This document shows positions 5,101-19,943 of a stretch of 64,000 nucleotides of DNA, piece after piece. The notes under the pieces are model-generated. The model did no database searches. It worked only from the letters and a program-made list of their open reading frames with translations, and was not told where the DNA came from. Within the stretch, counting starts at the first letter, position 1. Every line of letters starts with the position of its first letter. The DNA comes from Gemmatimonadota bacterium (GTDB taxonomy: Bacteria > JBHIER01 > G020348925). The stretch is taken from assembly GCA_020348925.1 (NCBI GenBank), contig CP070758.1, positions 2,495,688-2,559,687 on the forward strand. The letters run 5' to 3'. The position numbers were made by a program, and so were the translations under genes.

Positions 5101-8100
5101 GTATTAGGGGATAGCTTGGAAGAACCAGGACCCGGCGACTGGGACGGGATCTACCTATATGGAAAGCATGAAGACAAAGGGATTGGATTGTTCGATTACT
5201 GTCTCGTTCTTTATGGAGGTGCAATCGGTCATGTCATCGAGGCCAACATCTATTTCAATGAATCTGATTCAGGGTACGTTAACCATAGCGATATACATGA
5301 AAGTGCCGCGTATGGAGTTAAAGTTGAAGGGTGTTCGCCTACATTTCGAAGAAACTTAATCACTCACAACATAGGCCCCGGTATATATAGCGGGGCAAAT
5401 AGTAAACCTGATCTCGGCAGGGATGCTGCTGCAAATCAGGGAAAAAACTTAATATCATTCAATGACAATAATGGCTTTGGGGTATACAATGCATCGAATA
5501 GCACCATAAAAGCATATTGTAATTCGTGGGGATATACAACTGTTGAAGACATCGATACTCATCTTCGAGATAATGAAGAGGGAGGTGGAGAGATCCTCTT
5601 CGATCCCTGGCTGGAGAAATGCCCAAAACGGGAAACGACAAAACAGTCTAATGGAAAAGATGGAAAAGTTAAGGATCCGATCTCAACCGCGACAGGTGAG
5701 TTGTATAACGAGATGGTCGACCTGTATCTTGGCGGACCACTCCCCCTCTATTTCAGCAGATATTATGCATCACTGCTGACAAGAGACGGCAATGTGAACA
5801 GTCGGTTTGGCACAAATTGGATGCACAATTTCGACTTGAAGCTTATCCTGGATGGAGATGATGCCTCAGCCGTTTACTATGGAGGGAAAACCATATCCTT
5901 TCAGAAGGATGATTTCAACTGGGAACTGGTGTATTCTGAACCGATTATCTATCAACTTGTAGAATCAGGAAATGAATTTAAGCTAATGGATCCGGAGAGA
6001 TCCCTCATATTTACCTTTAATGAAAATGGCATGTTCGTTCAAGTCGCTGATCGAAACGGAAACGTCCTCGATCTTACCTATAACGATGACATGCTCAGCC
6101 AGGTATCAGACGGGCGCGGCCGAAGTCTTTCCTTTCTCTACACAGATGACAAGCTGACCCAGGTCCAGGACCAGAGCGGCCGCATGGTTTCATACTCATA
6201 CACCGGGAATAATCTGACAGAGTTTACCGATGCCAATGGCTACTCCACCATGTATACCTATACCGAGACGGATGGGTACACGGGGCTGCTGACATCGACA
6301 ACACGTTCCGAGGGCAACACACCATACACACAGATCTATGATGAACTGGGACGAGTTCTATCTCAAACAGACAGCAGGTCCAACGCAACTCGCCTTGCCT
6401 ACGATTCTCCGGCAGAGGGGATGACAACTATCACAGATCCGCTCCTCAATGCTACTACACATACTCATGAGGACTTCAAGCGACTGACCCAGTATCTCGA
6501 CAACAACAATGAGTCTTGCTACATCACGTACGACGCGAACAACAGACGGACTGGCATAACCGACCGCCTTGGAGACGAGACAACCTTCACCTATCATGAA
6601 GCATCTGGCAAGATAAGTACTACGACCGATGCTGAGGGTAATACCACCTCGTACATCTATTCATCCCAAGCTCAGGGAGACTTTGACTTCTACAACCTGA
6701 CACGAATCGAATACCAGAACGAGACTTCAATCACCATGTCCTACGACGATTCAGGCAACCTGCTCACTCTGACTGACCAGGCAGGACAGAACTGGTCCTA
6801 TTCCTACAACAGTATGGGGCAGATGACCTCCGCTACCAATCCAGCAGGTGGAACAACAAACTATTCCTACAATTCCGACGGGTCACTGGCCAGCTACACG
6901 GACCATTTCGGCAATACGACCAGCATCGTCTACGACACCTATAAAAGACCCCAGCAGGTGACATACCCCGATGGGACGACACGTCTATTCACCTACGATG
7001 AGAAAGATAACCTGACATCTGCAACCGACGAGAGAGGTATGAAGACAATCCTGTCCTATGACACCAATGGCAATTTGAAAACCGTTACGGATCCTATGAA
7101 CAATAACCTCTCGTTGGAATATGACGGCAACGACGCAATCATCTCATCGTCCGACAGACTCAACGCCACAACCTATTACTTCTATGATGGAAACGAACTG
7201 CTGTCCTCCATCACCAATCCGGCAGTTGAAGCCACTGACTTTCTCTATGACAGCCATGGATGGCTCACTTCGGTGACAGATCCGGATGGTCATACATCCA
7301 CTATAGCATATGATGAAGAAGGTGTTGTGACTTCCCTTACCGATGCTCTGTCAAACACCTGGAGCTATATGAGCGACAGGCTGGGACGAATAACTCGAAT
7401 ACTAATCCCGGAGGGCAGCTCCCACGATTTCACCTATGACAGCATGGGAAGAGTATCAACCTACACAGATCCCTTGTCCAGAAGTACTACCTATACATAC
7501 GACGATCGGGGATTCATCACAGGGTGGTCTCTACCAGGTAATCTGTCGGCAGATTATGACCGTGACAACCTGGGCAATATCATCAGCGTGATCGATCCGA
7601 ATGGAGAGAGCTGGACCCGCGACTACGATGAGATGGGGCGGCTGACTACCGAAACCGACCCCCTGAGCCGCTCAACCATTTATAATTATGACAACAGGAG
7701 TCGAGTATCGAATATCACCTATCCCGGTGGTTCCCTGGAGATCACTCATGATGAGGCTGGAAACATCGTTCGCAAACTGTACTCGGATGGTACAGATATC
7801 AGTTTTGCCTACGACGACAATAACCGTCTCTATTCATCAAACGACCTGAGCCTGGAATACGATGCACGGGATGACATAGTGGCCTGTAATGGTCTGTTGA
7901 TGATACGAGATCAAGCGGGCCGTATTTCCTCCCTCACCCTGGCTCCCGAAAAAGTCATAACCTATAGCTACAACGGTCGAGGTTTAGTCATCCAAGTCAC
8001 CGACTGGCTTGGCGGAACAACAGTCATCGACTATGATGAGGCAGGTCACATCATTTCCATAACCCGTCCCAATGGCATCATCACAACGTATAGTTACGAT

Positions 8101-9186
8101 AATGATGGCAGGCTAATCAGTATTGATGAGGCCAGCTCAGCCAGACTTTCGTCAATTTCTTTGACAAGAAACAGCGCCGGGGACATCACATCCGAGACAC
8201 GAAACGTCCCCCTCATTCCCGATCTTTCTTTGGATACTCAAACGCTATCATATGATGAAGCTTGCCAGGTCACAGAATTTACATACGATGAGATGGGACG
8301 GTTGACCGAAGACATTCGACGTTCGTACTCCTGGAACCTGGCTTCAAGGCTTGTTTCGTACACAGAAGCTGGAAATACTGTAACCTTTACCTATGATGGA
8401 TCAGGATTGCTGCACACGAGAACATCGGAAGATGTCACCAGGGAATACGTCTGGAATTACGCCCTGGGCCTCCCGTCAATCTCCCTCGTCAAAGAGAATG
8501 GCCATGACATTATGTTTTACATCCACCTCCCGGGAGGAAGACTGCTTTACAGTATCGATGCATCGAACGATACGCGCCATTACTATCATTTTGATGAAAC
8601 GGGGACGACGCTTTTTCTCACAGATGAAGCAGGCGCCATCACCGACACCTATGGCATCACGCCGTATGGGGAAACCGTAACGAAAACTGGAATCACAGAG
8701 AATCCCTTTACCTTTTGCGGGGCTTTTGGTGTGCTTCAGGAAGGCGATACGGGGCTCTATTCCATGAGAGCCCGGTTTTATGATTCAGGTACAGGGCGAT
8801 TCATTTCTACCGATGTCATCAATTCGATTCACCCCATAGAGATCAATCCCTATCAGTATGCCATGCAAAATCCCATGGCTCATTCGGATCCGATGGGTCT
8901 ACAGACATTTCATTACTCTTTTCTTGATAATTATATACTGCCATTTTTTGTGGATTACTATATAAATATGTCCAGGAAAAAAGTGGAAGCTCCTATGCAA
9001 CCGCCAGCATTAAATCCGACATTTGATGCTGCAAAAGATCGTGATCAAAGTGACTTGAAGCCTTCTTCGGACAGGGATGGAGGTTTTTCCTTTATAAGTT
9101 CACGGTACACTCTCAGAGATGAACCAATGTTTTGGGGAGGTATTTGGCCAGAAGTCGGATTTGCCACACCCACTCCTACACCATAG
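2110..9186 (+). CDS. Rhs/YD-repeat protein: signal peptide, five right-handed beta-helix modules, DUF6531-like region, RHS core, variable C-terminal domain
   Basis: GGAG RBS; signal-like N-terminus; five GxWxGI(Y/F) modules; DPISTATGEL; many YD repeats; core GLYSMRARFYDSGTGRFISTD...NPYQYAMQNPMAHSDPMGL. Confidence 0.9.
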   Translation: MLRKERMVITCFCFILLFQSADAYIEKSGNVSGETWIDTTYYITGSITVNDDETLTIEAGAVIKFKPDLRLKVYGTLVATGEEGNEIVFTASSDTDHGQPIPEAAGIPSPGSWQGIYFDGLDYRDGTGQLDWCIIRYGGQAGYDAPNANAFFRLSGSSYFRDCTSEYSATSGIKLSQCSPSIENNIFSNNVNHGLDVEGGSSVVDNNTFNNNGGYGAYLDGVACKSYTRNQGVDNGINGFGVIGTVESHCTWSMGSGSFPFVLPDEVEVQEGGELTFSENAIVKGDSLGLLTVNGKLDATFVTFTSLKDDDIGGNSDGDRGSPSCGDWYGIYVTGTGRFDGCNIKYGGRQGGYQVPLANVRFSNCDSSCFRNSQSGFSAEHGARVHNCSPEISDSRFYGNLGHGIFAQGSSSAPAIRNNVLGDDDGYWSGNGGWGVYLDDVILTSYANNKGGENGINAIGVSGTVTENCEWEMGVSGSVDFPFVILKENQVSVPLGHTLTLTSRTIIKADSSSSILVDGTLTAEGDYQRGTVVFTSFKDDEYGGDTNSDGPSSGEQGDWDGIFLNGQGDKQGIGEFNTCVIRYGGYRHGSAEANIRFNQSDSGHITNSLCEYSDYIGVEVISCSPDISGNEFLHNADSGLYVFGNQAKPVIADNIFTGNGLDAFGPGDSTYAVVLSSTILMSYTGNTGSRNGINAFAMNGLIEDSVTWSMPDQDFLFIMTENIDVEKEGTLSLSAGTILKAKDGTELNVKGVLEARGTEGDPVFITSIGDNIGGNKLSGEQVINIEPGAWDGIYLNGQDENLGIGKFDWCIIRFGGRSGQYNPMANIRFDKSDSGYFRHSISEYSKFSGIRIDNCSPVLDSSSMNFNLKDGLMAVGDSSAPIVINCSFNKNSEYGANMDDIILTGYIDNTGNENGTNGFRVKGWVNESCSWSMGSETFPFIMKDVLVDDEATLTLSAGTTIMAESNGRMKVYGTLDVNGNYGEYVIFTSVKDPDWGVVLGDSLEEPGPGDWDGIYLYGKHEDKGIGLFDYCLVLYGGAIGHVIEANIYFNESDSGYVNHSDIHESAAYGVKVEGCSPTFRRNLITHNIGPGIYSGANSKPDLGRDAAANQGKNLISFNDNNGFGVYNASNSTIKAYCNSWGYTTVEDIDTHLRDNEEGGGEILFDPWLEKCPKRETTKQSNGKDGKVKDPISTATGELYNEMVDLYLGGPLPLYFSRYYASLLTRDGNVNSRFGTNWMHNFDLKLILDGDDASAVYYGGKTISFQKDDFNWELVYSEPIIYQLVESGNEFKLMDPERSLIFTFNENGMFVQVADRNGNVLDLTYNDDMLSQVSDGRGRSLSFLYTDDKLTQVQDQSGRMVSYSYTGNNLTEFTDANGYSTMYTYTETDGYTGLLTSTTRSEGNTPYTQIYDELGRVLSQTDSRSNATRLAYDSPAEGMTTITDPLLNATTHTHEDFKRLTQYLDNNNESCYITYDANNRRTGITDRLGDETTFTYHEASGKISTTTDAEGNTTSYIYSSQAQGDFDFYNLTRIEYQNETSITMSYDDSGNLLTLTDQAGQNWSYSYNSMGQMTSATNPAGGTTNYSYNSDGSLASYTDHFGNTTSIVYDTYKRPQQVTYPDGTTRLFTYDEKDNLTSATDERGMKTILSYDTNGNLKTVTDPMNNNLSLEYDGNDAIISSSDRLNATTYYFYDGNELLSSITNPAVEATDFLYDSHGWLTSVTDPDGHTSTIAYDEEGVVTSLTDALSNTWSYMSDRLGRITRILIPEGSSHDFTYDSMGRVSTYTDPLSRSTTYTYDDRGFITGWSLPGNLSADYDRDNLGNIISVIDPNGESWTRDYDEMGRLTTETDPLSRSTIYNYDNRSRVSNITYPGGSLEITHDEAGNIVRKLYSDGTDISFAYDDNNRLYSSNDLSLEYDARDDIVACNGLLMIRDQAGRISSLTLAPEKVITYSYNGRGLVIQVTDWLGGTTVIDYDEAGHIISITRPNGIITTYSYDNDGRLISIDEASSARLSSISLTRNSAGDITSETRNVPLIPDLSLDTQTLSYDEACQVTEFTYDEMGRLTEDIRRSYSWNLASRLVSYTEAGNTVTFTYDGSGLLHTRTSEDVTREYVWNYALGLPSISLVKENGHDIMFYIHLPGGRLLYSIDASNDTRHYYHFDETGTTLFLTDEAGAITDTYGITPYGETVTKTGITENPFTFCGAFGVLQEGDTGLYSMRARFYDSGTGRFISTDVINSIHPIEINPYQYAMQNPMAHSDPMGLQTFHYSFLDNYILPFFVDYYINMSRKKVEAPMQPPALNPTFDAAKDRDQSDLKPSSDRDGGFSFISSRYTLRDEPMFWGGIWPEVGFATPTPTP

Positions 9187-9454
9187 TTCACATATACTTT
9201 CCGTGAAGTTAATGGGATAGATTTTATCAGAAAGCAAATCGATATACTCGAAGAATCCTTCCGCCAACAGAAAGGACCTTCTACCACACCACAGCTTCCG
9301 GATACTCCAAATGGTGGTAACCGTGAGATACCATTCGATAAATTCATGAAAGACCTGTTCAAAAAAGGACAAAGATGACCAAGTCATGGTGATCCGTGAC
9401 AAGTAATACCAATCAGAATTTTGATCTAATCATGCATTTCATTTTGGAAGGAAG

Positions 9455-9775
9455 ATGATATTCACTACATCAGAACTAAAAGACCTCATACTCGCAGAGA
9501 TCAGCATTCGGCACACCCTGGGTGAGCAGGTTGGGGGAAGCGGACATCTGGGATTCGTCAGTTTGACCAACCTGGAGATCGGGGAACCGGTGGAGATCAA
9601 ATTCAAGGAGAAGCAGGCATTTGAGATCCTGTTCAGTTTTGAGACATACACCGAATCCGAGTTTCACTATGCCACAGACGATGATGATTCAGATGATATG
9701 TACCGCAGTATCTATCACGCCAAAATTATTGTCGATAAAGAGTTGAAGGTTTTACATTATACTAACCTGCCATAA
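9455..9775 (+). CDS. Small acidic hypothetical protein (candidate Rhs immunity protein)
   Basis: GGAAGG upstream; 106 aa, Asp/Glu-rich; co-oriented just downstream of Rhs. Function inferred from position only. Confidence 0.6.
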   Translation: MIFTTSELKDLILAEISIRHTLGEQVGGSGHLGFVSLTNLEIGEPVEIKFKEKQAFEILFSFETYTESEFHYATDDDDSDDMYRSIYHAKIIVDKELKVLHYTNLP

Positions 9776-9967
9776 TCACCAACTGTTCCTTTTGAAACCG
9801 CATCATTATTACCCTCACATAAGGAACGGATATCTTAACTCCTCTTCGCATTAAGAACTGTAATACTCCCTTCTTCAAAGACAAATATGAACGAATAAGC
9901 TCTTCCTCATTTTCTGGTTTTTATACTCAGTCAGGGATCATTATTAGAAAAAAATAAAAAAATCTTC

Positions 9968-10022
9968 TTGACAAATGAAACTTTACTGTATATATTGCGT
10001 CTATACAGTATGGACGATATAG
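9968..10022 (+). promoter_or_regulatory. Sigma70 promoter overlapped by a palindromic operator (probable GntR/YtrA-type site)
   Basis: TTGACA (9968-9973), 17 nt, TATATT (9991-9996); perfect inverted repeat TACTGTATA-N9-TATACAGTA (9984-10010); overlapping near-palindrome CGTCTATAC-A-GTATGGACG. Confidence 0.75.
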
Positions 10023-10049
10023 TCAGAACGCTGTGTCCGGGAGGTAAAC

Positions 10050-11138
10050 ATGTTGCTGCGATTGACAGAATTATCACAAGAACCTTTATATAAGCAACTT
10101 ATAGCCCAACTTTCTGAGCGAATTTCAAATGGAGAGCTTTCGATAGGGGCAGTATTACCAACTATCGGGAAAATGGCCCGGAAACATCATGTCAACATGA
10201 ATACAGTCAGACGGGCATACAATGAGTTGGAAAAGGTCGGTTTCATCCAACGTAAGGGCGAAGACAGTGCCGTTGTGACCTTTTCTCCTCCCCGGCTGGG
10301 ACGAATTTCTGCAGGACATAAATCCATCACCCTTCATTCCCTCACTGGTACGACCACCCCTCTCTTTTCCGAACCTATGGAAAAACGCGAATTGAACGAC
10401 CAGCTGGTTAAAGTCCACCAGATTCAGACAAACCTGTTGCCCAAGAAATTACCTGAAAATGAATTGCTCTCCGTTGTGGCGCATTGCCATCCCTCTTACA
10501 TCGTGGGGGGTGATTTCTATGACTGCATTCAGATCGACGAATACCGTTTCGGCTTCGCCATCGCCGACGCTTGCGGCAACGGACTGCCGGCCGCAATGCT
10601 TATCTCACAAATCCAGGCCATGCTCAAGAGCGAGCTCAATAATGGAAACCGAATCAGACGGATTCTGGAGAACATGAACCGACAGGTCTTTCAAAACTCC
10701 CCGGAAGACAGATTCGTCACCTTCTTTTTCGGAGTGCTCGATACATCCACCGGTCACTTCAGGTACGTCAATGCCGGCCACAATTACCCAATTCTCATGC
10801 GAGGCCATGGCAATCCAGAAAGGTTGGAAGTTGGCGGTCTGGCTTTGGGCATGTTTTCTGATACGACCTTTGAAATCGGGCAGGTGGTTCTCACAGATGG
10901 AGATATTCTTCTGTTCTTTACAGATGGACTGACAGAAATAAGGAACGATTTACACCAGGAGTACGGAGAACAAAGACTGCTGTATATTCTCGATCGTTGC
11001 CGGCATAGAAACATAGAAAACATTTTGAGCGATGTGTTAAAAGATGTAAGAACCTTTGCCGGAACGGAATCCTGGCAGGACGATTGCACCGTTATGCTTG
11101 TCAGGATCGGCAGGAGATTCTCTCATAGATCTGAATAG
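10050..11138 (+). CDS. GntR (YtrA-like) winged-helix domain fused to a SpoIIE/RsbU-type PP2C phosphatase
   Basis: N-terminal PLYKQL...LPTIGKMA...VNMNTVRRAYNELE; PP2C motifs GGDFYD, IADACGNG, NAGHNYP, FTDGLTE, QDDCT. Confidence 0.9.
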   Translation: MLLRLTELSQEPLYKQLIAQLSERISNGELSIGAVLPTIGKMARKHHVNMNTVRRAYNELEKVGFIQRKGEDSAVVTFSPPRLGRISAGHKSITLHSLTGTTTPLFSEPMEKRELNDQLVKVHQIQTNLLPKKLPENELLSVVAHCHPSYIVGGDFYDCIQIDEYRFGFAIADACGNGLPAAMLISQIQAMLKSELNNGNRIRRILENMNRQVFQNSPEDRFVTFFFGVLDTSTGHFRYVNAGHNYPILMRGHGNPERLEVGGLALGMFSDTTFEIGQVVLTDGDILLFFTDGLTEIRNDLHQEYGEQRLLYILDRCRHRNIENILSDVLKDVRTFAGTESWQDDCTVMLVRIGRRFSHRSE

Positions 11139-11145
11139 GAGCACG

Positions 11146-11523
11146 ATGCTTTTAAACCTGACCGATCTTTCCGACGAGCCGCTTCAAAGCCAGCTGGCAA
11201 GGCAAATACGGGCAAAAATTTTGGCGGGGGAATTATCCGCCACGGCTCCCTTGCCTTCAATTCGAGCCCTGGCACGAGAGCAGAAGGTGAGTGTCATCAC
11301 CGTTCAACGGGCTTACGAACATCTCATGCGGGAGAACCTGATTCATTCCAGACGAGGAAAGGGCTTCTTTGTATCAGAAGTGCCTCGCACCCAAAAAAAG
11401 GATATGGCTGTAGATCGGCTTAAGGATCATCTTGAGCGCCCTGTGCGCGATGCGATTTCGGAGGGACTGACGGTGAAGGAAATTAAAGCAGCACTGGGGG
11501 AGATTATTTCAAAGATCGGTTGA
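11146..11523 (+). CDS. GntR family regulator, YtrA subfamily
   Basis: AGGAG RBS then ATG 11146; LPSIRALA...VSVITVQRAYEHL...RRGKGFFV; short helical C-terminus. Confidence 0.9.
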   Translation: MLLNLTDLSDEPLQSQLARQIRAKILAGELSATAPLPSIRALAREQKVSVITVQRAYEHLMRENLIHSRRGKGFFVSEVPRTQKKDMAVDRLKDHLERPVRDAISEGLTVKEIKAALGEIISKIG

Positions 11524-11619
11524 AAAGCCTAAGCCTTAGCTTAATCCGACAAAGGAGCCAGGAATTCGGCATTAAAGAAAAACTCAAACGAAACACATAA
11601 GATCCAAAGGAGAAGTACG

Positions 11620-12504
11620 ATGGAAAAAGCATTTCACTTCAAAAACGTAGTTAAGAGATATCCTGAATTTCAGCTCGGGCCGCTCAGCCTGGAGTTGGAA
11701 CCAGGGGTTGTCCTCGGTTACATCGGGCCGAATGGATCGGGGAAGACAACGACGATGCATTGTCTCACAGGTCTGGTCAAGGCGGATCAAGGCGAAATGT
11801 ATGTCTTCGAGCGCAGGAACGATCCGAACAAACCCGCATGGAAACTCGATATTGGATACGTCGGGGACGTCCATGTATTCTACGAGCGTTGGTCCGGTGA
11901 GAAAAATTTGCGGTTCCTCTCCCAGTTCTACCCGAACTGGTCCCATGAGCGAGCTCAGGAACTGGCCCGGCGTTTCAATCTCCCTTTAAACAAAAGAGCC
12001 AAGGATTTATCCAGTGGGAATCGTGTCAAATTATCCCTCATCTCGGCTCTGGCTCATTCTCCGAGATTATTACTTCTCGATGAGCCGACCTCGGGGATTG
12101 ATCCGGTCGTTCGAACAGAAGTACTGGATGTTCTCTTCGAAGTTTTGGAGGATGGAGACAGGGCCATCTTCTACTCCACACATATTTTGTCAGATATCAG
12201 TCGTCTCGCCGACGAATTGGCCTTTCTGGATAACGGTCAAGTTATGCAGAGATCCGCAAAGGACGACCTGACCGACACCTGGCGAAAAATTTCCTTTCGC
12301 CTGGATAAAGAGTTGGTTCCTTTGGAGGCAATGGTAGATCGAAAACAGGAAGGTAATGACTATCAGGTCATCAGCTCGAACTTTGAAGCCACCGTGCAAC
12401 ATCTCCGTGAGCTTGGTGCTGAAAACATCCGCGAAAACCGCATGACGATCGACGAGATTGCCGTCCAGATATTGAAGGGTGGAATTCATGTGGCGAGTTC
12501 TTAG
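11620..12504 (+). CDS. ABC transporter ATP-binding protein (YtrB / ABC-2 exporter type)
   Basis: Walker A GPNGSGKT, signature LSSGN, Walker B LLLLDEP, H-loop STH. Confidence 0.95.
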   Translation: MEKAFHFKNVVKRYPEFQLGPLSLELEPGVVLGYIGPNGSGKTTTMHCLTGLVKADQGEMYVFERRNDPNKPAWKLDIGYVGDVHVFYERWSGEKNLRFLSQFYPNWSHERAQELARRFNLPLNKRAKDLSSGNRVKLSLISALAHSPRLLLLDEPTSGIDPVVRTEVLDVLFEVLEDGDRAIFYSTHILSDISRLADELAFLDNGQVMQRSAKDDLTDTWRKISFRLDKELVPLEAMVDRKQEGNDYQVISSNFEATVQHLRELGAENIRENRMTIDEIAVQILKGGIHVASS

Positions 12505-13195
12505 TGCCGAATTACAGTATAACAGGTATGTTGCGATTTACATACTGACACTCTCTGTCTTGAGTTTCATCAGCGTGCATTTCTACACACCCATATTCGG
12601 AAGGCCAATGACGTACACGAATGCAGGCATCATCTCGTCCGGTCATATGTTCTTCTTTTTTGTCGGTACGATTCTTGTCTCAGCCTGGTGGAAAGAGCGC
12701 ACCTATCGCAGTCATGTCTTGCTCCCTCTCGGAGCATGGAAAATTGGAGCAGTGCGATTCGGGATGTATCTGATTTATTGGATTTCACTCCTCTGTATCT
12801 ATTTCATCTGGAGTCGTATTTCTCAGCATTTCACTATTGACGCCAAGATGATTTCCGTCCTGTGCACACAAACAGGCTTTATATTGATTGTTTTCTCACT
12901 TATTTTCTTTTGGAGCGATCTCCGTGAATCGACAATTAAGAATCGAACAATTCTCAGGATGCCGGGAAAGAAAGTATTTGGCTTAGCAACCTTGGTCACT
13001 ATCATGCTCATTTCATTTATCAGTATGGCCGGGACCGTTCACACGTACCAAAGAAAATGCACAAGCCAGTTTGACCGTTTTTTGTGCTGGGTGTACCAAT
13101 CTGAAACTGGACCGGTTTTTTTCATCGCACTGGGTCTCTGTTTCGCCATGCTCACAATTATGACTTTCGGACGTCGAAGATCATACTTTGATTGA
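12488..13195 (+). CDS. Multi-pass membrane protein, ABC-2 permease-like paralog 1
   Basis: About 6 hydrophobic segments; starts MWRVLSAELQYNR, ends RRRSYFD; overlaps the ATPase stop. Confidence 0.8.
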   Translation: MWRVLSAELQYNRYVAIYILTLSVLSFISVHFYTPIFGRPMTYTNAGIISSGHMFFFFVGTILVSAWWKERTYRSHVLLPLGAWKIGAVRFGMYLIYWISLLCIYFIWSRISQHFTIDAKMISVLCTQTGFILIVFSLIFFWSDLRESTIKNRTILRMPGKKVFGLATLVTIMLISFISMAGTVHTYQRKCTSQFDRFLCWVYQSETGPVFFIALGLCFAMLTIMTFGRRRSYFD

Positions 13196-13217
13196 CTATG
13201 ATAAAGGAGTCAACACC

Positions 13218-13880
13218 ATGGAAGAATCATTGAAATTCAATATGTGGCACGTTTTAAAAGCGGATCTCCAATATCACAGGCTGGTCATCGGAACCGTTTA
13301 TACCATCGGCATTATGATGCTTATTGGAGACCTCGCTTTAAACATATTCGACATATATATGATCTTGGGAATCACAACGCTGTCCTTTTACGCCGGGATG
13401 TGGATCATTGGAGCAACGGACAACAAAGAAAAACGAGACCGACATCAAACGGCTCTTCCGAACTCAATCGAAAGACAAAGCACCGTGCGCCTCATGTTTT
13501 GTGTTCTTTTTCAGACAGGTTTACTGATTATGTGGCTTCTCCTCCTTCTTCTCAAATACGCTGGTGATGCCAATCGACTTGTCTGGGATATCTTCTCCAT
13601 AAATGCCCTCAATCTCATCATTATAATGCTTTTCGTTATCTATGCTGATTTAGGTGAAGTGGGAAAAAAATTGTATCGATATCTTTTTTTAGGGTCGGTT
13701 TTACTCATTCTATTCTTTCTCATCTATCTCAGTATTATCGATACTCTCCAATATCCTCTTTCTTTTGGACCTGAGATCAGAAAAACCCCAGTGGAGACAG
13801 CGGTGTATAATATCGTCTGTATCGTTTTAATTTATTTCGATCATATAATCTTCTTAAAGCGCAGATCGTATCTTGATTAG
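13218..13880 (+). CDS. Multi-pass membrane protein, permease-like paralog 2
   Basis: AAGGAG RBS; MWHVLKADLQYHR...EKRDRHQTALP...RRSYLD. Confidence 0.8.
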   Translation: MEESLKFNMWHVLKADLQYHRLVIGTVYTIGIMMLIGDLALNIFDIYMILGITTLSFYAGMWIIGATDNKEKRDRHQTALPNSIERQSTVRLMFCVLFQTGLLIMWLLLLLLKYAGDANRLVWDIFSINALNLIIIMLFVIYADLGEVGKKLYRYLFLGSVLLILFFLIYLSIIDTLQYPLSFGPEIRKTPVETAVYNIVCIVLIYFDHIIFLKRRSYLD

Positions 13881-13892
13881 GAATTTATCACT

Positions 13893-14576
13893 ATGTGGAA
13901 ACTCTTCTGGACAGAATTGAAATATAACAGGCTCTTGATATCTATTGCCTACATATTCTGCCTGATCTGTTTTGTCACAATATGGTTTGGTGTACGATAC
14001 GAACATAATCGCGTGCCGTTATTCATGCTTATAATTCTTGTCACAACGTTTATGATTCATTTTACAGTTGAAGGGAGTCGAACAAAAGAGAACAGAAACA
14101 GAATGCAAGTGGTACTACCAATTCCAAGTACTATCATTTATGTCAGTCGTTTTTCTCTATCTATTGTCTTATGGATAAATATCGGACTGTTGTTAGTGAT
14201 TAGTCAGCGTATCGTGCAATCTCTTTTCAATAGTTCCCTAATGATACCCACTGCCAATCAGCTCCTTTCTGTGAATGGATTGGTCTTAATCATAACTGTC
14301 GCTTATCTTCTCAACTCGGATAAAAATACAGTTTTTTCGCGCGGTTCCCTCAGAGTCATGACTTTTATTGTTTGGTTGGGTTTTTACGTGGCTGCACTGG
14401 GACCTTTCTTTATTCTCACAGATTTTTTAGGTGCGTTCGGGCAACACACCCCTCTCCAAGCAACATTAATGAATGTAATATCATCGACATCAGGGAGTCT
14501 TACCCTCAATCTGTTAGGTTTGTCCCTCGTCCTCATGAGTATAATTATTTTTATCAGGAGGAGATCATTTGTCTAA
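13893..14576 (+). CDS. Multi-pass membrane protein, permease-like paralog 3
   Basis: MWKLFWTELKYNR...ENRNRMQVVLP...RRRSFV. Confidence 0.8.
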   Translation: MWKLFWTELKYNRLLISIAYIFCLICFVTIWFGVRYEHNRVPLFMLIILVTTFMIHFTVEGSRTKENRNRMQVVLPIPSTIIYVSRFSLSIVLWINIGLLLVISQRIVQSLFNSSLMIPTANQLLSVNGLVLIITVAYLLNSDKNTVFSRGSLRVMTFIVWLGFYVAALGPFFILTDFLGAFGQHTPLQATLMNVISSTSGSLTLNLLGLSLVLMSIIIFIRRRSFV

Positions 14577-16860
14577 ATATATCGATGTTAAAAATATTAC
14601 TCGGATTTTAAACCTGTTCATTGTCTCAGTCTTATTGGGATGTGGGAACCAGCAAAAGCATTCAGAAAAGGTTACAATTGAATTCCGACTCGCCGAAACG
14701 ACCCCGGTTGAAGGTTTGTCCGAAATGATTATTCAAAGCTCCGGGGAGAGGTTTTTTCTCCACCAAGAGGTATTACTGTCGAACAGCGATATAGCATCGG
14801 CTTCCGTTAAAATGCACAACAATCGATCTGCTGTTGAATTGATCTTGACTGATACAGGGCGAGACAAACTGGCCGAAGTAACACAGGAAAACATCAATAA
14901 CCGCATGGGAATGCTTATAGACGGAAAACTGGTGTCAGCTCCCCTCATTCAGGCTCCGATACGCGTGGGCAAGGCAATCATCGACGGAGGATTTTCTGAA
15001 AACGAGGCGCTTCGTATTGTACGTTACATTGAAAGTGGACGAAAGATCGCAGGAAGGATACCACGATTTCACTTGAAAGACGCAAAAGGATTTATGCACT
15101 CATACATGGCGGCCCTCAGGACCGGAGACAAATCCGAGATCTCCTCCTTCTGGAGTAAAATATCGTTGAACAGGGAAGGTTTTGGTTACATGCATCTGTG
15201 GATCGGTGCGTGTCTACCGATTTCCGAATGGACAACCTTTTTCGAAGAGAACGACTATACCTATCACATAAACTCCGTCAGCACCGAGAAGGATCATTAC
15301 ATAATTCATTTCGACTGGATTGAGGGAGATACATCTAACGGAAAAAATGAATCCGAGACGCACCCCATGCGGTATTATATCGTTTGGGAGGATGAAGAAT
15401 GGGTTTTGATAAATCCCATCGACATCCTAACGAGGGACTGGTCCATATACGAGAGCGAGTATTTCATTTTTCATTATCCAGCACAGATCAACATCGAAGA
15501 CCATTTTTCAGAACTTCATTTCATGGATCGAGGATACGAAAAATTAATTGAATCGCTACACATATCCCCTGCAGAAAAAATAGAGTATTATAAAGCCCGA
15601 ACACCTCGAAAATGCGGAGATCTCGTCTGCTTTCCACCTGCCAATGGATATTGTGCACGCGGTCTCCCTTTTCGTCCGAATGCACCTCAGTGGTTTCACA
15701 TTGTCATCTCAACATCCTTTATTAATCTTCATGAAGTGACTCACTTGCTTGTTCCTGACGCCGATCTCTACAGCATCAACGCTGCATTTGATGAGGGAAT
15801 CGCTGTCGCTTTTGGAGGTACGACCTTTCAAACAGCCGAATACGCGCTCATTCGCACAAGAAATGCGATCGGTCAATCTGACTATGTACCCCTTGAAACC
15901 TTTCTTACAGATGAAGCTCATTTTTGGAAATACTCGTTTATAACCTACCAGGAAGCGGGGGCATTCGTAAGATTTCTGATCGACCGATTTGGAATTGAAA
16001 AGTTAAAAAAACTCTGTAACGATCCTGAAGTCGGTCAAGAATTAGCCGGTACGATTCAGAAAATCTATGGCTTTTCAATCAAGAAATTGGAACAACAATT
16101 TAAAGAATATCTGAGCGAGATCGATGTACCAGAAGTTGAATATTCCGCACCTGATAATGCAACGTTAGTCTTCTCCATGACCGATCCAGAGAACGATGAC
16201 AACGGAGACGGTGACTATGAGTACCCAGCAGACAAACGGTTTGAGAAGGGAGTCTTTGATCTGAGAGAATTCAGCGTGCTCACGGATACCAGTCGCGTCT
16301 ATTTCAGATTAAGATTTCAAAATATGATTGGACCTGTAAACTATGATGATATAGAAGAGAAGTTCTTACCTGGCACTGTTATCGCGATCTGTAAGAAGAG
16401 GGGTGCTGGAAGACACGTCCAGAAGTATTTTGATGGCGTCCGATTTGAACAGGATAGGGGTTATGACATAAAACTCACTGTCGGATTCGGAATCACAGCC
16501 TCCAACAATTTTGGGAAAGTATACTATACGACCGGAGACAACTTCAGCGACCTCTCAAATATCGAAAACAATACAATCTCATTTTCAATCCCAATTGATT
16601 TTATCGGAAAACCTCATAAGAATTGGGGGTATTTTGTGGGAGTCGGACTGATGGGCGATCGCACGATGCATTTTACCGGAGGTCCCATGCCTGTGTATAA
16701 GGACCACAGGCTTTTCATTCGTGGCGGAAATCACGAGTTCGGCAATCCGGCTTTCATCGACATTCTTCTTCCTGAAGAAAGAAACCAGAAAAAGATGCTC
16801 TCCGACTATGACCCAGGAGAAGGGAAACTGGCCGTAGTCCCCATAATCACACAAAGATGA
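14569..16860 (+). CDS. Multidomain lipoprotein: SecD/SecF P1-head-like domain, gluzincin (MA-like) peptidase, glucodextranase DOMON-like C-terminal domain
   Basis: AGGAGG RBS and TTG start overlapping the previous stop; lipobox LLGC; VTQENINNRMGMLIDGKLVSAPLIQAPI...IDGGFSENEA; HEVTH...FDEGIA; DPENDDNGDGDYEYP...GVFDLREF. Confidence 0.75.
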   Translation: MSKYIDVKNITRILNLFIVSVLLGCGNQQKHSEKVTIEFRLAETTPVEGLSEMIIQSSGERFFLHQEVLLSNSDIASASVKMHNNRSAVELILTDTGRDKLAEVTQENINNRMGMLIDGKLVSAPLIQAPIRVGKAIIDGGFSENEALRIVRYIESGRKIAGRIPRFHLKDAKGFMHSYMAALRTGDKSEISSFWSKISLNREGFGYMHLWIGACLPISEWTTFFEENDYTYHINSVSTEKDHYIIHFDWIEGDTSNGKNESETHPMRYYIVWEDEEWVLINPIDILTRDWSIYESEYFIFHYPAQINIEDHFSELHFMDRGYEKLIESLHISPAEKIEYYKARTPRKCGDLVCFPPANGYCARGLPFRPNAPQWFHIVISTSFINLHEVTHLLVPDADLYSINAAFDEGIAVAFGGTTFQTAEYALIRTRNAIGQSDYVPLETFLTDEAHFWKYSFITYQEAGAFVRFLIDRFGIEKLKKLCNDPEVGQELAGTIQKIYGFSIKKLEQQFKEYLSEIDVPEVEYSAPDNATLVFSMTDPENDDNGDGDYEYPADKRFEKGVFDLREFSVLTDTSRVYFRLRFQNMIGPVNYDDIEEKFLPGTVIAICKKRGAGRHVQKYFDGVRFEQDRGYDIKLTVGFGITASNNFGKVYYTTGDNFSDLSNIENNTISFSIPIDFIGKPHKNWGYFVGVGLMGDRTMHFTGGPMPVYKDHRLFIRGGNHEFGNPAFIDILLPEERNQKKMLSDYDPGEGKLAVVPIITQR

Positions 16861-16887
16861 GTACTACTCCGCTCAAAGGAAACCGTC

Positions 16888-17532
16888 ATGTGGAAGCTGA
16901 TTCGATCTGAGTTGCTGTATTACAAAACACTGTTAACCATTCTCTACGCCTTCGTGGTACCATTTTTCATATTCAATATCTTCAGGCAAGGTTTCGAATA
17001 ACATCTGGCCCGGGCAATGTGGATTACGGTCCCCAACATTGCTATTGCTTTGAAAAGCGAATACAAGAAATCGAAGAAGAATCCGCTCTATGCGAGGTTA
17101 CCGATACCAACACTCCATGTCGGAATCTCAAAACTTGCAATTTGGGTGCCGTACTGGTTGAGTCTCGTTTTTCTATTCACAATCAGTAGTCTCTTAAACA
17201 ATCACAGCAGAATAGAACAGTATTTTCCCTGGATTATTCTGACTCTAGCGAGTTCGATGATTATCATAGGGGCATTTTCCAGCACTGTACTGGACCTGCG
17301 TTACTGTTTGAGAGGGATAGTTATGGATCAGACTTTGGCAGCGTGTATCATACTTATCCCATGGATCTTGGCATTACTCTACCTGTTTATGAGCATTTCC
17401 GGCCCCGTCGGTCCGTATTTGGCGAGAACCTTTTTCTCTCCAGGAGTCTCGATTTCAATGACGTCCGTTGCAACCATTTTGCTCGTCCTGAGTATCATTG
17501 TTTTTAATCAACGCAGATCTTTCCTGGAGTAA
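16888..17532 (+). pseudogene. Permease-like paralog 4 with in-frame TAA at 16999-17001
   Basis: AAGGA RBS; ATG 16888 gives MWKLIRSELLYYK...GFE*HLARAMWITVP, in frame with track ORF 17017-17532, which ends RRSFLE. Confidence 0.75.
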
Positions 17533-18239
17533 TGGCAATGTGGAAATTGATAAAGGGGGAATTTTTTTACAATAAGAACATGCTTTTAGTCTGTTATACT
17601 ATTTTTATCGCTTTACTGATTACATTCGTCTACTTCCCCGGCAGAAACTTGGAACAGCCACCCGCTGCCAAATGGTTAATTGCTGCTATTTGGCAAATCT
17701 TTATTGTTTCAATTGTTGTGTGGGCTTTTTATGCTTCGGGGAGTGTCAAGAATAGACGAGCCAGGTTTCAAACAATGCTGCCTGTCTCGATCTTGCAGGT
17801 TTCGTTGATACGCTTTGTGTTGCCTCTTTTCTTCTGGTCGAGCGGAGTTTGCCTCTTTTGGATCATGCACCTTCTGGGCAGCACATCGAAAAGTGTCATC
17901 GATGTCTTCTGGACCATGTTATGTTTGATGGGCGTGTTCCTCATTATTGTATCTCTACGTTACATTGCCATAGACTTAAAAACCTCACTCATAGCTAAGA
18001 ACGTAAAATGGTTCGTCCGCAATATGGCCGGCGGTATTCTCTTAGGTATCATATTCATCGTCTATTTTTTCACAATCTATACGTATTACTCCATCAGACC
18101 GTTTCATGCATTACGGCAATATTCACCGTCGTTCCTGCTTACACCTTCGGTGGCGGTTTTGTGGACCGTAATTGGCGTAATGCTCACTTTCGCCAGTATT
18201 GTCGTCTTTTCCTGCAGACAGTCATATGTTGAGTCCTGA
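17532..18239 (+). CDS. Multi-pass membrane protein, permease-like paralog 5
   Basis: MAMWKLIKGEFFYNK...KNRRARFQTMLP...RQSYVES. Confidence 0.8.
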   Translation: MAMWKLIKGEFFYNKNMLLVCYTIFIALLITFVYFPGRNLEQPPAAKWLIAAIWQIFIVSIVVWAFYASGSVKNRRARFQTMLPVSILQVSLIRFVLPLFFWSSGVCLFWIMHLLGSTSKSVIDVFWTMLCLMGVFLIIVSLRYIAIDLKTSLIAKNVKWFVRNMAGGILLGIIFIVYFFTIYTYYSIRPFHALRQYSPSFLLTPSVAVLWTVIGVMLTFASIVVFSCRQSYVES

Positions 18240-18332
18240 TCAGCATCGTGGATCGGTTCATCGGACAACCTAAATTTGAGCTCTCAGAGGACAAGTTGTC
18301 TCATCATAGAATATGGAATCGTTGCTTCTATT

Positions 18333-18827
18333 CTATTTCTCATTTTTACTATCCCTAAGCTCAAATCGATAAGGAACGGATACGTAACACGGCACGGCCT
18401 TGTCGCTGACCTTTCCCGGCTTAAACAAAATTTTAGTAGCAGCCTGCATGGCCGCCTCATCAAGTGGGCGATGGCGAGAAGACTCCATAACGCGAACCTC
18501 CTTGACCCGGCCTTCTTCATCGACGAGAAGTCGAAGAATCGTCGTCCCCTGTATACCGGCCTTCTCCATCGACTCAGGATATTTGGGTTGTGGGTAATCG
18601 ATGATCTGAGGCATCGTATCACATTCGAAGAATCCCTCGAATCCACTCTCAGTTTGAGTCTCATCGTTAAAAAGTTGACTCGCAATTGCTTCTCCGCCCG
18701 GAAACTCTCTCGATGACAGAGTCTCACTGCCGAGCTTCATAATGTGAAAATAGATGAGGAGATTAAGACCTAAAACAAGAACCATTATCCCGAGGATAAC
18801 TGAAAGCAGTTTTTCGGACTTATTCAT
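18333..18827 (-). CDS. Energy transducer TonB family protein (N-terminal TM, TonB C-terminal domain)
   Basis: TM segment, then PQPKYPESMEKAGIQGTTILRLLVDEEGRV..V.VMESS...LDEAAMQA...FKPG...VPYRFEL. Confidence 0.85.
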   Translation of the reverse strand: MNKSEKLLSVILGIMVLVLGLNLLIYFHIMKLGSETLSSREFPGGEAIASQLFNDETQTESGFEGFFECDTMPQIIDYPQPKYPESMEKAGIQGTTILRLLVDEEGRVKEVRVMESSRHRPLDEAAMQAATKILFKPGKVSDKAVPCYVSVPYRFELRDSKNEK

Positions 18828-19410
18828 TTCCTGGCCCCCTTTTTTTGTTAAAGATGGATTGTACTTCAATTGCCGGTAACTGCGAATAACACCCTGGTAA
18901 AAGATCTACTCTCGACGGTCTCTTCAACTCAACTAAGAACGCCCTCATATTCTTCAATCCGTACACGCTTGGCTCTAAGAGTTTAAGCGTTTCCTTTTCA
19001 AAAGTGCAACCGAGCGTAGGTGATACTAATTTGAAACATGGCGTTTCTGATGAGATGGACCGTTTCCAAGGCACACGTCCAAAGAAAGTCAAAAGAAGTA
19101 GAAAAACAACAGCTGCACAGGAGTATATCATTGCCCTTCTGACGAAAAGCGGTCCGATGAGCTGATTGTCAGATCGCAACGTCTGAATCTCATTCCGTAC
19201 CCTCGCCCACATCTCTTCGATCTTGATTTCAGCATTCTCATCCTGGGGAACAACCTTGTGAAGCAGCTTTACAGCTTCACTCTCTTCCGATTGAAAAGCT
19301 GAACACTGGGGGCAGTGCCGTAAATGCTTCACCACTCTTGTGGCTTGATTCGGCTTCAGTTCGTTCTTCAGGTAATCTTCCATGAGGAGTTGGGCTTTCG
19401 TGCACCTCAT
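18820..19410 (-). CDS. Membrane-anchored anti-sigma factor with zf-HC2 zinc finger
   Basis: MRC...HLRHCPQC, one TM segment; ATGA-coupled to the ECF sigma gene. Confidence 0.85.
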   Translation of the reverse strand: MRCTKAQLLMEDYLKNELKPNQATRVVKHLRHCPQCSAFQSEESEAVKLLHKVVPQDENAEIKIEEMWARVRNEIQTLRSDNQLIGPLFVRRAMIYSCAAVVFLLLLTFFGRVPWKRSISSETPCFKLVSPTLGCTFEKETLKLLEPSVYGLKNMRAFLVELKRPSRVDLLPGCYSQLPAIEVQSIFNKKRGPGNE

Positions 19411-19943
19411 GCCTCATCCCCCTTTCGCAGTATTTCCCTCAATCTTTGCCTCGCCTGATACAGGAGTACACGAATCGTACCCTCCGTCGTCCCCATGATT
19501 TTTCCCGTTTCACGGCAGGAAAACCCTTCCGAATAGCGAAGTATACAAGCGGTTCTCAAACGCTCCGGTAAATTCTCTATCAGGGATTTTACGATTTGAA
19601 CCTCCTCATCTCTCCCGGCGGTTTTATCCGGAAAACTGTCAATCTCGACCTCTTCGTGAGATTCGATCTCACGTTTTCTTCTATCATATCGATCCCTCGC
19701 CTCATTCGTTACGATTCTATAAATCCAGACATCGAATCGCTCCGGATATCTCAATGACGAAAGAGATCGATACGCCTTCAACATCGCCTCCTGAACAATA
19801 TCCTCGGCGTCCTCCTGATTACCAATGAGTCGAAGGGCATAACTCGTCAGAGGTCGACAGTAGGCATAGAACAAATCTCTAAAGGCCGCAATATCTCCCT
19901 TCTGAGCCTCTCGCACCTTCTTTGTGCGCTCACTTCGTTCCAC
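19407..19943 (-). CDS. ECF RNA polymerase sigma factor
   Basis: DAEDIVQEAMLKAY...WIYRIVTN; region 4 LPERLR...EGFSCRETGKIMGTTEGTIRVLLYQAR. Confidence 0.93.
   Translation of the reverse strand: MERSERTKKVREAQKGDIAAFRDLFYAYCRPLTSYALRLIGNQEDAEDIVQEAMLKAYRSLSSLRYPERFDVWIYRIVTNEARDRYDRRKREIESHEEVEIDSFPDKTAGRDEEVQIVKSLIENLPERLRTACILRYSEGFSCRETGKIMGTTEGTIRVLLYQARQRLREILRKGDEA

Follow-up and report, generated by a model that had tools for sequence, protein, structure and literature searches.

The transporter operons closest to the one described here pair a GntR-type repressor of the YtrA subfamily with an ATP-binding cassette (ABC) transporter. In Staphylococcus aureus, the YtrA-type repressor gene of PmtR-PmtABCD lies directly upstream of a type V exporter that provides export of, and immunity to, phenol-soluble modulins (PSMs), and a structure of PmtCD is available (PDB 6XJH). 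PSMs are reported to release PmtR from its promoter (PMC5080381). In Streptococcus salivarius, a repressor, an ATPase, and a membrane protein (MbrR-MbrAB) stand behind a palindromic operator; a preprint describes MbrR as being sequestered by the ATPase MbrA, the MbrB substitution R14P as derepressing, and the system as conserved across Bacillota (bioRxiv 10.64898/2026.02.18.706565). In Bacillus subtilis, YtrA is reported to autoregulate the envelope-stress-induced ABC operon YtrABCDEF. Here we analyze a 64,000-nucleotide stretch of Gemmatimonadota DNA (contig CP070758.1, positions 2,495,688 to 2,559,687; hereafter, the window), in which nine genes encode two GntR-type proteins, one ABC ATPase, five paralogous membrane subunits, and a putative lipoprotein peptidase. 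On balance, we consider this locus to be probably a YtrA-class operon that represses itself and encodes an inducible "extruder" of type V (ABC-2).

The likeness to Pmt extends from gene order to individual proteins. The best NCBIfam match of the ATPase (g3) is PmtA, the best full-length match of the repressor (g2) is PmtR, and the best structural match of the modeled membrane subunit (M5) is PmtD, with which it shares six transmembrane (TM) helices and a conserved TM2-TM3 loop. Unlike Pmt, the locus has one ATPase gene rather than two and five membrane genes rather than two; it belongs to a host with a Gram-negative-type envelope (a predicted lipoprotein is encoded in the operon and a TonB gene lies nearby); it carries an extra gene (g1) for a winged helix-turn-helix (wHTH) domain fused to a PP2C phosphatase, and a peptidase gene (g7); and no cargo genes were identified. 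Because the scores fall far below the equivalog cut-offs (200 versus 350 bits for the ATPase, 71 versus 200 bits for the repressor) and the subunit composition differs, the locus is not a member of the Pmt family. With Mbr it shares the order of repressor, ATPase, and membrane protein behind a palindromic operator and, as judged without an alignment of the two proteins, a conserved basic position in the N-terminal helix of the membrane subunit (YNR/YNK here, R14 in MbrB). In contrast to the conservation across Bacillota reported for Mbr, the loci related to ours bear titles such as KSB1, Calditrichia, and Acidobacteriota, and the Mbr system has neither a permease array nor a PP2C fusion. The system thus appears, from its sequences, to work like Pmt or Mbr yet to belong to neither.

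The remaining precedents are more distant. YtrBCDEF comprises two ATPases along with membrane components of another kind, and it lacks a PP2C domain, an ABC2_membrane_5-like array, and a peptidase. The C-terminal domain of g1 resembles the PP2C phosphatases of the RsbU/SpoIIE family, which have N-terminal regulatory domains, in its strong match to SpoIIE (1.9e-47) and its invariant aspartates; unlike in the usual members of that family, the N-terminal module is a YtrA-derived wHTH and the gene lies inside an ABC operon. Group II energy-coupling factor (ECF) transporters, in which several diverged S components share one ATPase module, offer a likeness in concept only: their fold is unrelated, they are importers and so work in the opposite direction, and the genes for their S components generally lie dispersed over the chromosome. 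The original prediction for this DNA, made from the sequence by a model, did not recognize the combination as a described system, and we likewise found no paper on a GntR-PP2C fusion in a literature search, which did not cover subscription journals.

Operon organization, operator, and distribution

The nine open reading frames (ORFs), all on the plus strand, occupy positions 10050-18239 and are separated, in gene order, by 7, 96, -26 (or -17), 22, 12, -8, 27, and -1 nt. A sigma-70-type promoter on the plus strand (TTGACA-17 nt-TATATT, 9968-9996), with a match score of 11/12, is the top site within positions 9300-19000; across the region, the total numbers of promoter-like sites (16 versus 18.8 expected from shuffling) and of terminator-like sites (9 versus 9.1) are not above chance. 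The -10 hexamer of this promoter is overlapped by a palindromic operator, TACTGTATA-N9-TATACAGTA (9984-10010), whose 9-nt arms are 100% complementary. The coordinates, the promoter, and the perfect inverted repeat bear out the original description of nine co-oriented, mostly tightly coupled genes behind one promoter/operator, and the spacing suggests that the nine genes may be co-transcribed. No micro-ORF with a ribosome-binding site or conservation was found in the gap between repressor and ATPase genes, either in the 96-nt gap of the window or in 13 related gaps.

To place the locus among its relatives, 185,579 species genomes were scanned with an alignment of two YtrA orthologs. This gave 599 pattern matches, 342 of which encode relatives; 80 loci were kept (labeled below by L-numbers), and their ORFs were searched with profiles of the window proteins. 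The record titles of the 80 loci include KSB1, Calditrichia, Aminicenantes/Acidobacteriota, Latescibacterota, Krumholzibacteriia, Eisenbacteria, Melioribacteraceae, and others, although some of these titles are probably binning artifacts. The ATPase gene adjoins the repressor gene in 68 of the 72 loci with at least 1.3 kb of downstream sequence, and genes for the membrane subunits (M genes) are present in 48 of the 51 loci whose downstream sequence reaches 6 kb or more. Their number varies widely among these 51: 17 loci have one copy, 15 have two, 8 have three, 5 have four, one each has five, six, or seven, and 3 have none. The wHTH-PP2C fusion was found in 40 of the 69 loci with at least 1.6 kb upstream and is directly adjacent in 37 of them. 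The conserved order is therefore operator, optional wHTH-PP2C fusion, YtrA, one PmtA-like ATPase, and then one to seven membrane genes. The synteny search thus supports the regulator-ATPase-membrane core in other genomes, and the expansion of the permeases is not peculiar to this genome, as arrays of one to seven copies occur across the loci.

The operator is conserved along with the genes. A 21-nt pattern derived from the window site and its counterpart in a distant genome (G029), which has the same operon head and the same operator, matches only once in the window (0.00 expected) and only once in the 5.04-Mb genome. Of 79 related loci, 66 have a match to at least 15 of the 21 positions beside the gene that opens the module; the shuffled control has 27 such sites in 558 kb, and the consensus is ACTGTATATATTGnrTATATACAGT. 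Where the fusion is present, the operator sits upstream of it. The locus represents a widespread, unstudied clade of a known general operon type in Gram-negative phyla, with permease arrays and the wHTH-PP2C fusion as an accessory.

Several of the related loci carry additional genes within or next to the module. In nine of them (L024, L044, L050, L053, L069, L071, L075, L078, and L084), the M array is followed or broken up by a second, ordinary ABC-2 transporter encoded on that strand, and L041 has it as a fragment; this second transporter, of which the window has none, consists of an ATPase that matches g3 at about 1e-26 and a permease of about 390-550 amino acids (aa) of the ABC2_membrane_3 family. 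Genes for PF05635 "23S rRNA-intervening sequence protein" are inserted in L047 (1801-2163, between repressor and ATPase) and in L041 (14105-14527), and the array of L052 contains an inserted ORF that by eye resembles an extracytoplasmic function sigma factor. In an Aminicenantes-like clade that has no fusion, a protein of the Sulfatase family follows the M genes (L031:12816-14873, L035:13476-15533, L033:6819-7805, and L051:12082-13653); in three of these proteins, which resemble envelope-modifying enzymes of the LtaS/EptA type, about 245 N-terminal residues without a Pfam match precede the domain, and in L051 the sulfatase domain begins at residue 51.

ATPase and membrane subunits

The only ABC ATPase gene of the operon, g3 (11620-12504, plus strand), encodes a PmtA-like protein of 294 aa with a C-terminal extension. 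Its best NCBIfam match is PmtA (4.5e-59 over residues 4-285; 200.1 bits versus the 350-bit equivalog cut-off), it matches Pfam ABC_tran at 1.4e-22, and the solved nucleotide-binding domains nearest to it are those of ABCA, Rv1218c, and NosF. In 62 orthologs, residues G36, P37, N38, G41, K42, T44, S131, G133, D154, E155, and H188 are invariant; they cover the Walker A motif, the signature, the Walker B motif with the catalytic glutamate (E155), and the histidine of the H-loop (H188). By these motifs, g3 is a catalytically intact ATPase.

The five genes for predicted ABC-2-type membrane subunits, all on the plus strand, are M1 (12479-13195; the conserved MW start suggests the ATG at 12488), M2 (13218-13880; the ORF is open from a TTG at 13188, and GGAG precedes the ATG at 13218), M3 (13893-14576), M4 (16888-17532, with an in-frame TAA at 16999-17001), and M5 (17532-18239, the copy chosen for modeling). 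Their products of about 215-238 aa have about six hydropathy segments each, are pairwise 20-26% identical, and share an N-terminal MW, a K..R..LP motif, and a C-terminal RRS(Y/F). All five matches of this family in the 5.04-Mb genome are at the locus; no M-family match was found in the second genome of the window's phylum (87% complete), one of two in the collection, the absence of the family not being shown thereby. Elsewhere the family is large: an exhaustive profile search retrieved 724 representatives at E<=1e-3, nearly all of 200-245 aa and matched end to end, which supersedes a word-indexed search with the paralog alignment that had given 4 matches among 8000 candidates. The Pfam model PF13346 (ABC2_membrane_5) matches 14 of 85 sampled family members, at best at 3e-9, but none of the five window paralogs at E<=0.01, and a PDB sequence search with the M-family profile gave only chance-level matches, the best being to cytochrome c (E 0.003).

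The five permease paralogs of the original prediction are true paralogs, but the fourth is not the 171-aa protein of the first reading; that ORF is the C-terminal part of a full-length M4 interrupted by the TAA. In sediment metagenome contigs (run X2), position 16999 is G instead of T, which turns TAA into GAA; the metagenome with this G has 83% of the sampled words of the locus, and in a second run of the same study, a contig break falls over the stop site. The M4 ortholog on another metagenome contig (L126; 53% identical) has Glu at this position. Because of GAA in the sister population and Glu in the L126 ortholog, we interpret the stop codon as either a nonsense mutation of recent origin or an error in the assembly of the source genome, and not as recoding.

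An AlphaFold2 model of M5 (predicted local distance difference test [pLDDT] 88.8, predicted template modeling score [pTM] 0.86) has helices at residues 3-13, 15-34, 46-73, 76-81, 87-116, 122-152, 156-186, and 205-227, that is, an N-terminal amphipathic helix and six long TM helices, with a short helix between TM2 and TM3. In a VIA-align comparison with 48,161 solved chains, PmtD ranks first (6xjh_A; Z 13.4, root mean square deviation 3.8, 199 residues aligned), although a shared arrangement of helices can by itself bring bundles to Z scores of around 13. PmtD is followed by CcmB (Z 12.4), ABCA4 (11.4), NosY (11.4), and ABCG2 (10.8), with about 200-220 residues aligned. The top ten of Foldseek consist of NosY, CcmB, and PmtD, with no match at E<=0.001 (best 0.032). 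The modeled M subunit has the transmembrane-domain fold of type V (ABC-2) transporters, in line with the original assignment.

Conservation in the M family is concentrated on the predicted ATPase-facing (cytosolic) side: the information content is 2.3 bits in the N-terminal helix, 2.4 in the TM2-TM3 loop, and 2.4 in the C-terminal tail, compared with 0.6-0.8 bits in the loops placed outside. In PmtD, the TMH2/3 loop is reported to be a coupling helix that contacts the ATPase (PMC7527219). The ATPase interface expected for the membrane proteins is thus matched by the three predicted cytosolic elements being the most conserved ones.

The five paralogs come from different ancient subfamilies. M1 groups with the fourth gene of L025, the second of L073, and the first of L033 and of L062 (Shimodaira-Hasegawa [SH]-like support 99, SH-type approximate likelihood ratio test [SH-aLRT] 100), M2 with the second genes of L053, L041, L028, and L056 (SH-like 96), and M3 falls into a clade of eight rows (SH-aLRT 99), its nearest row being the fifth gene of L025. 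M4 also forms a clade with genes of other phyla (SH-aLRT 95), so that M1, M3, and M4 all stand in well-supported clades with genes of other phyla. Forced monophyly of the five paralogs, a group that was defined after the first tree, was rejected (difference in log likelihood 280.8; p value of the approximately unbiased test 0.016). Loci with a single M gene come from different clades, and because these single-copy loci use different subfamilies, we suggest that several membrane subunits share one ATPase. The simplest reading would be that ancient subfamilies, each workable with the same ATPase, have been gathered in varying numbers and orders.

The M genes might instead encode obligate partners, in fixed heterodimers or a larger heteromer, with copy number reflecting the complexity of the complex and not the breadth of substrates. 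In the related two-gene loci L028, L041, L053, and L056, the pair of subfamilies and their order are constant, L038 and L042 have five positional orthologs in common, and PmtABCD likewise has two different membrane proteins. On the other hand, 17 of 51 loci have a single M gene, from different clades, so that several subfamilies, at the least, must function singly, as homodimers; the gene order differs between the window and L025, where the relatives of M1 and M3 are the fourth and fifth genes; and the M4 nonsense codon, polymorphic between sister populations, would be more easily tolerated if the subunits were dispensable alternatives. We regard obligate partnership as unlikely for the family as a whole, while the constant pair of subfamilies in the four two-gene loci favors heterodimers there.

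The putative lipoprotein peptidase and other hydrolases

Between M3 and M4 lies g7 (14569-16860, plus strand), which encodes a predicted lipoprotein metallopeptidase of 763 aa, composed of a SecD-P1-head domain, an NTF2-like domain, a gluzincin peptidase domain, and a glucodextranase-C-like beta-sandwich. The Pfam domains detected are SecDF_P1_head, Peptidase_MA_2 (33.5 bits versus a cut-off of 32.4), and Glucodextran_C. At the N terminus, an LLGC lipobox was read by eye (...FIVSVLLGC-GNQQ), and the model (pLDDT 87) has a helix at residues 4-24. Fold comparisons match the C-domain of glucodextranase (1ug9, E 2e-9), the P1 head of SecDF (3aqo, E 4e-7), and NTF2-like domains, and the catalytic domain matches M9 collagenase and M1 aminopeptidase (E 3e-4 to 3e-3). 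The HExxH motif with its additional Glu (H388, E389, H392, and E409) is invariant in 46 sequences; g7 is plausibly an active zinc peptidase of the gluzincin type.

The family to which g7 belongs has proteins of about 620 aa, mostly without the SecD-head domain, in WOR-3, Marinimicrobia, and metagenomes; only four ENA proteins share this domain with g7 (57-63% identity). None of the 80 related operon loci has g7. A metagenome scan with g7 alone gave no relative, and one with an alignment (A8) gave 79 g7-family loci, of which only L126, the closest relative (59% identical), has an M-family gene beside the g7 homolog: there, the order of g7 ortholog and then M4 ortholog is the one found in the window. 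The genome of the window has a g7 paralog in an unrelated context. The g7 query was not found in genomes G001 or G029, absence from these not being shown thereby. Because g7 is missing from all 80 operon loci and only its closest relative is syntenic, it is a lineage-specific insertion, and one that this lineage has retained. The peptidase lipoprotein of the original prediction is not a conserved component of the system, given none among the 80 related loci, none among the 78 other loci of its own family, and a single close relative, and g7 should not be counted as part of the system in general.

In L126, about 1 kb of tandem repeats (783-1850; units of 112 and 177 nt, with 21-nt sub-repeats inside) lies between the g7 and M4 orthologs, and beyond M4, the place held by M5 in the window is taken by an unannotated 205-aa ORF on the other strand.

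Other hydrolases occur in or beside other arrays: S41 (L022 and L042), S15 (L020 and L073), and M23 (L097) peptidases, beta-lactamase-fold proteins with DUF3471 (L052 and L081), a C69-like protein (L030), and a TAP-like protein (L084). Exported peptidases account for 9 of 105 scanned co-oriented neighbor ORFs and for 3 of 98 upstream control ORFs, a difference that is not significant (one-sided Fisher p 0.085), in a test that used length thresholds of 110 versus 150 aa, in which 6 of 111 neighbors and 52 of 150 sampled controls were unscanned and the loci are related, not independent. In two KSB1-titled loci (L042:13535-15622 and L022:4152-6265), a lipobox-bearing S41 (tail-specific) peptidase lies inside or just after the M array and is followed by a second ORF, weakly LolA/DUF620-like in L042 and without a Pfam match in L022; the position of the peptidase in L042, between the third and fourth M genes, is that of g7 in the window. 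Hydrolases with DUF3471, three with a beta-lactamase fold and one Peptidase_C69-like, adjoin the operon in 4 of the 80 loci (L052:13888-15573, L081:13337-16975, L030:11887-13974, and L051:7061-8770, the last on the minus strand).

These hydrolases bear on another alternative, namely that the locus is a signaling or partner-driving ABC device rather than an exporter, whose membrane domains, of the NosY/CcmB kind, act on periplasmic partners such as g7 or sense membrane perturbation, with derepression and PP2C activity as the outputs. The top Foldseek ranks of NosY (NosDFY works with the lipoprotein NosL) and CcmB fit this view, as do the phosphatase being the first operon gene in 40 of 69 loci and the different exported hydrolases in or beside the arrays of nine loci. 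Transporters of this class with such roles have also been described: YtrBCDEF of B. subtilis is reported to be tied to competence, biofilm formation, and cell-wall thickness (PMC8060467), and the MbrAB transporter is described as a sensor (bioRxiv 10.64898/2026.02.18.706565). Nevertheless, we think that a device of this kind is quite improbable here: g7 and the other hydrolases are non-orthologous, mostly absent, and without significant enrichment; the M proteins, to judge from the M5 model, have no periplasmic domain; the phosphatase is missing in 29 of 69 loci, and one clade of 10 is entirely without it; and the best structural match by Z is PmtD, a peptide exporter subunit.

Two regulators

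The original prediction had a single regulator gene, a phosphatase-fused repressor. The operon has two GntR-type genes, the wHTH-PP2C fusion g1 and the canonical YtrA-type g2. The latter (11146-11523, plus strand; 125 aa) is a YtrA/PmtR-type GntR protein with the GntR domain at residues 14-76 (Pfam, 7.5e-16) and only a short C-terminal extension, as in the YtrA subfamily. Its best full-length NCBIfam match is PmtR (9.4e-20 over residues 3-116; 70.9 bits versus a cut-off of 200). Across 77 orthologs, little or no variation occurs in the recognition helix (S49-R55), the turn at S38-R40, or the wing (R69-F75).

The fusion protein g1 (10050-11138, plus strand; 362 aa) joins a YtrA-like GntR wHTH at residues 13-76 (Pfam, 1.7e-12) to a SpoIIE/RsbU-type PP2C domain at residues 164-353 (SpoIIE, 1.9e-47; 162 bits versus a cut-off of 25), and the solved PP2C structures closest to it are Rv1364c, RssB, and SpoIIE. 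Five metal-binding aspartates of the PP2C domain (D155, D173, D292, D344, and D345) are invariant in 42 orthologs. Over 71 residues, the wHTH shares 48% identity with its counterpart in g2, and it retains the core of the fold, with the recognition-helix Arg55 present in 69% of the 42 orthologs; yet at positions that are invariant or almost so in the 77 YtrA orthologs (S38, I39, S49-I51, Q54, and the wing R69-F75), the fusion is relaxed. At these DNA-contact positions, the commonest residue of the fusion reaches a frequency of at most 0.55 anywhere and at most 0.36 in the wing, which in the window reads QRKGEDSAV.

The architecture is common in metagenomes: 1473 proteins match the fusion at E<=1e-10, most of the 120 matches listed have both Pfam domains, and their names are only automatic ones, such as "RsbU / YhcF." Longer g1 orthologs (about 500 aa) have an inserted GAF domain. 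On the ATPase tree, the presence of the fusion requires at least 14 changes, and a clade of 10 has no fusion throughout; for these two reasons, we consider the fusion a frequent but dispensable accessory. The window encodes no STAS partner for the PP2C domain; seven STAS genes lie elsewhere in the genome.

Because the DNA contacts are conserved in g2 and relaxed in g1, and the PP2C aspartates are invariant, we read g2 as the probable operator-binding repressor and g1 as a probably active phosphatase with a YtrA-derived domain of changed function. The earlier notion of a phosphatase-fused repressor holds for the fusion itself but is weakened as to its role, since the DNA contacts are relaxed, the fusion occurs in only 40 of 69 loci, and the conserved regulator is the separate YtrA. 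That g1 is instead the master repressor, with its wHTH on the operator, its PP2C as a signal-sensing or effector domain, and g2 redundant, could appeal to the wHTH likeness just described, to its place as the first gene behind the operator, and to the fact that GntR regulators normally have a C-terminal effector domain, but we give this little credence in view of the relaxed DNA-contact positions, the absence of the fusion from 29 of 69 loci in which operator and g2 are retained, the 14 or more changes on the ATPase tree, and the aspartates, which argue for a working phosphatase and not for a mere ligand pocket.

Returning to g1 as a phosphatase, by analogy with MbrR its wHTH might have kept the surface for capture on the ATP-bound ATPase, so that pump flux would recruit or release a transporter-coupled phosphatase. 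This is a speculative idea to which we attach only a low probability. If it were correct, membrane-peptide stress would be passed directly to phospho-signaling, without a kinase sensor or a two-component system, in many Gram-negative phyla, and one of the genome's seven STAS partner-switching modules would be a possible target.

Neighboring genes

Directly upstream of the operon (2110-9186, plus strand) is a gene for a 2358-aa protein with right-handed beta-helix repeats, DUF6531, and RHS/YD repeats, which resembles a polymorphic toxin of bacterial competition. It is followed by an ORF of 106 aa without a family match (9455-9775, plus strand) that could be an immunity gene. In the related loci, no association of the RHS/YD protein with the ABC operon was observed. 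On the other side, genes for a TonB_C protein, a zf-HC2 anti-sigma factor, and an extracytoplasmic function sigma factor (18333-19943, minus strand) are convergent to the end of the operon and lie outside the conserved module.

Proposed mechanism and significance

We propose that dimers of g2 block the promoter as long as no membrane-active amphipathic compounds, probably peptides from competitors or from the cell itself, engage the transporter. Derepression could come about in one of two ways: the cargo might bind the repressor, as with PmtR, or the ATP-bound ATPase might capture it, as has been proposed for MbrR. The ATPase dimer would then energize dimers of whichever membrane subunit is present, and the five subfamilies would serve as alternative specificity modules on one motor, allowing a broader set of compounds to be driven out of the inner membrane. 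Co-induced as the product of the first operon gene, g1 would probably pass the stress signal to a phospho-Ser/Thr target encoded elsewhere, and g7 may degrade expelled peptides in the periplasm.

Several points weigh against the extruder reading. To our knowledge, the studied precedents are all Gram-positive, and in this host the pump would be enclosed by an outer membrane. Co-transcription of the nine genes is deduced from their spacing. The five window paralogs have no Pfam or NCBIfam match above threshold, the Z and Foldseek values of the M5 model are those given above, and the orientation of the M loops is taken from the analogy with PmtD and from K/R-rich loops. In some two-gene loci, the constant pair favors heterodimers over interchangeable subunits, and for a role of peptidases, neither g7, found in 0 of 80 related loci, nor the frequency of exported peptidases as neighbors (p 0.085) speaks. 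Even so, an inducible extruder operon of the YtrA class is the interpretation to which we incline.

YtrA repressors with ABC modules are increasingly seen as minimal sense-and-expel devices against antimicrobial peptides, and a well-conserved clade with a sharply conserved operator extends this design to sediment-dwelling Gram-negative phyla. If the wHTH-PP2C protein docks on the transporter, ABC flux would be linked to Ser/Thr phospho-signaling. With one to seven anciently diverged subunits per ATPase, conserved on the side predicted to face it and otherwise variable, the operon type also offers a natural system for studying how one ABC motor serves many transmembrane partners.

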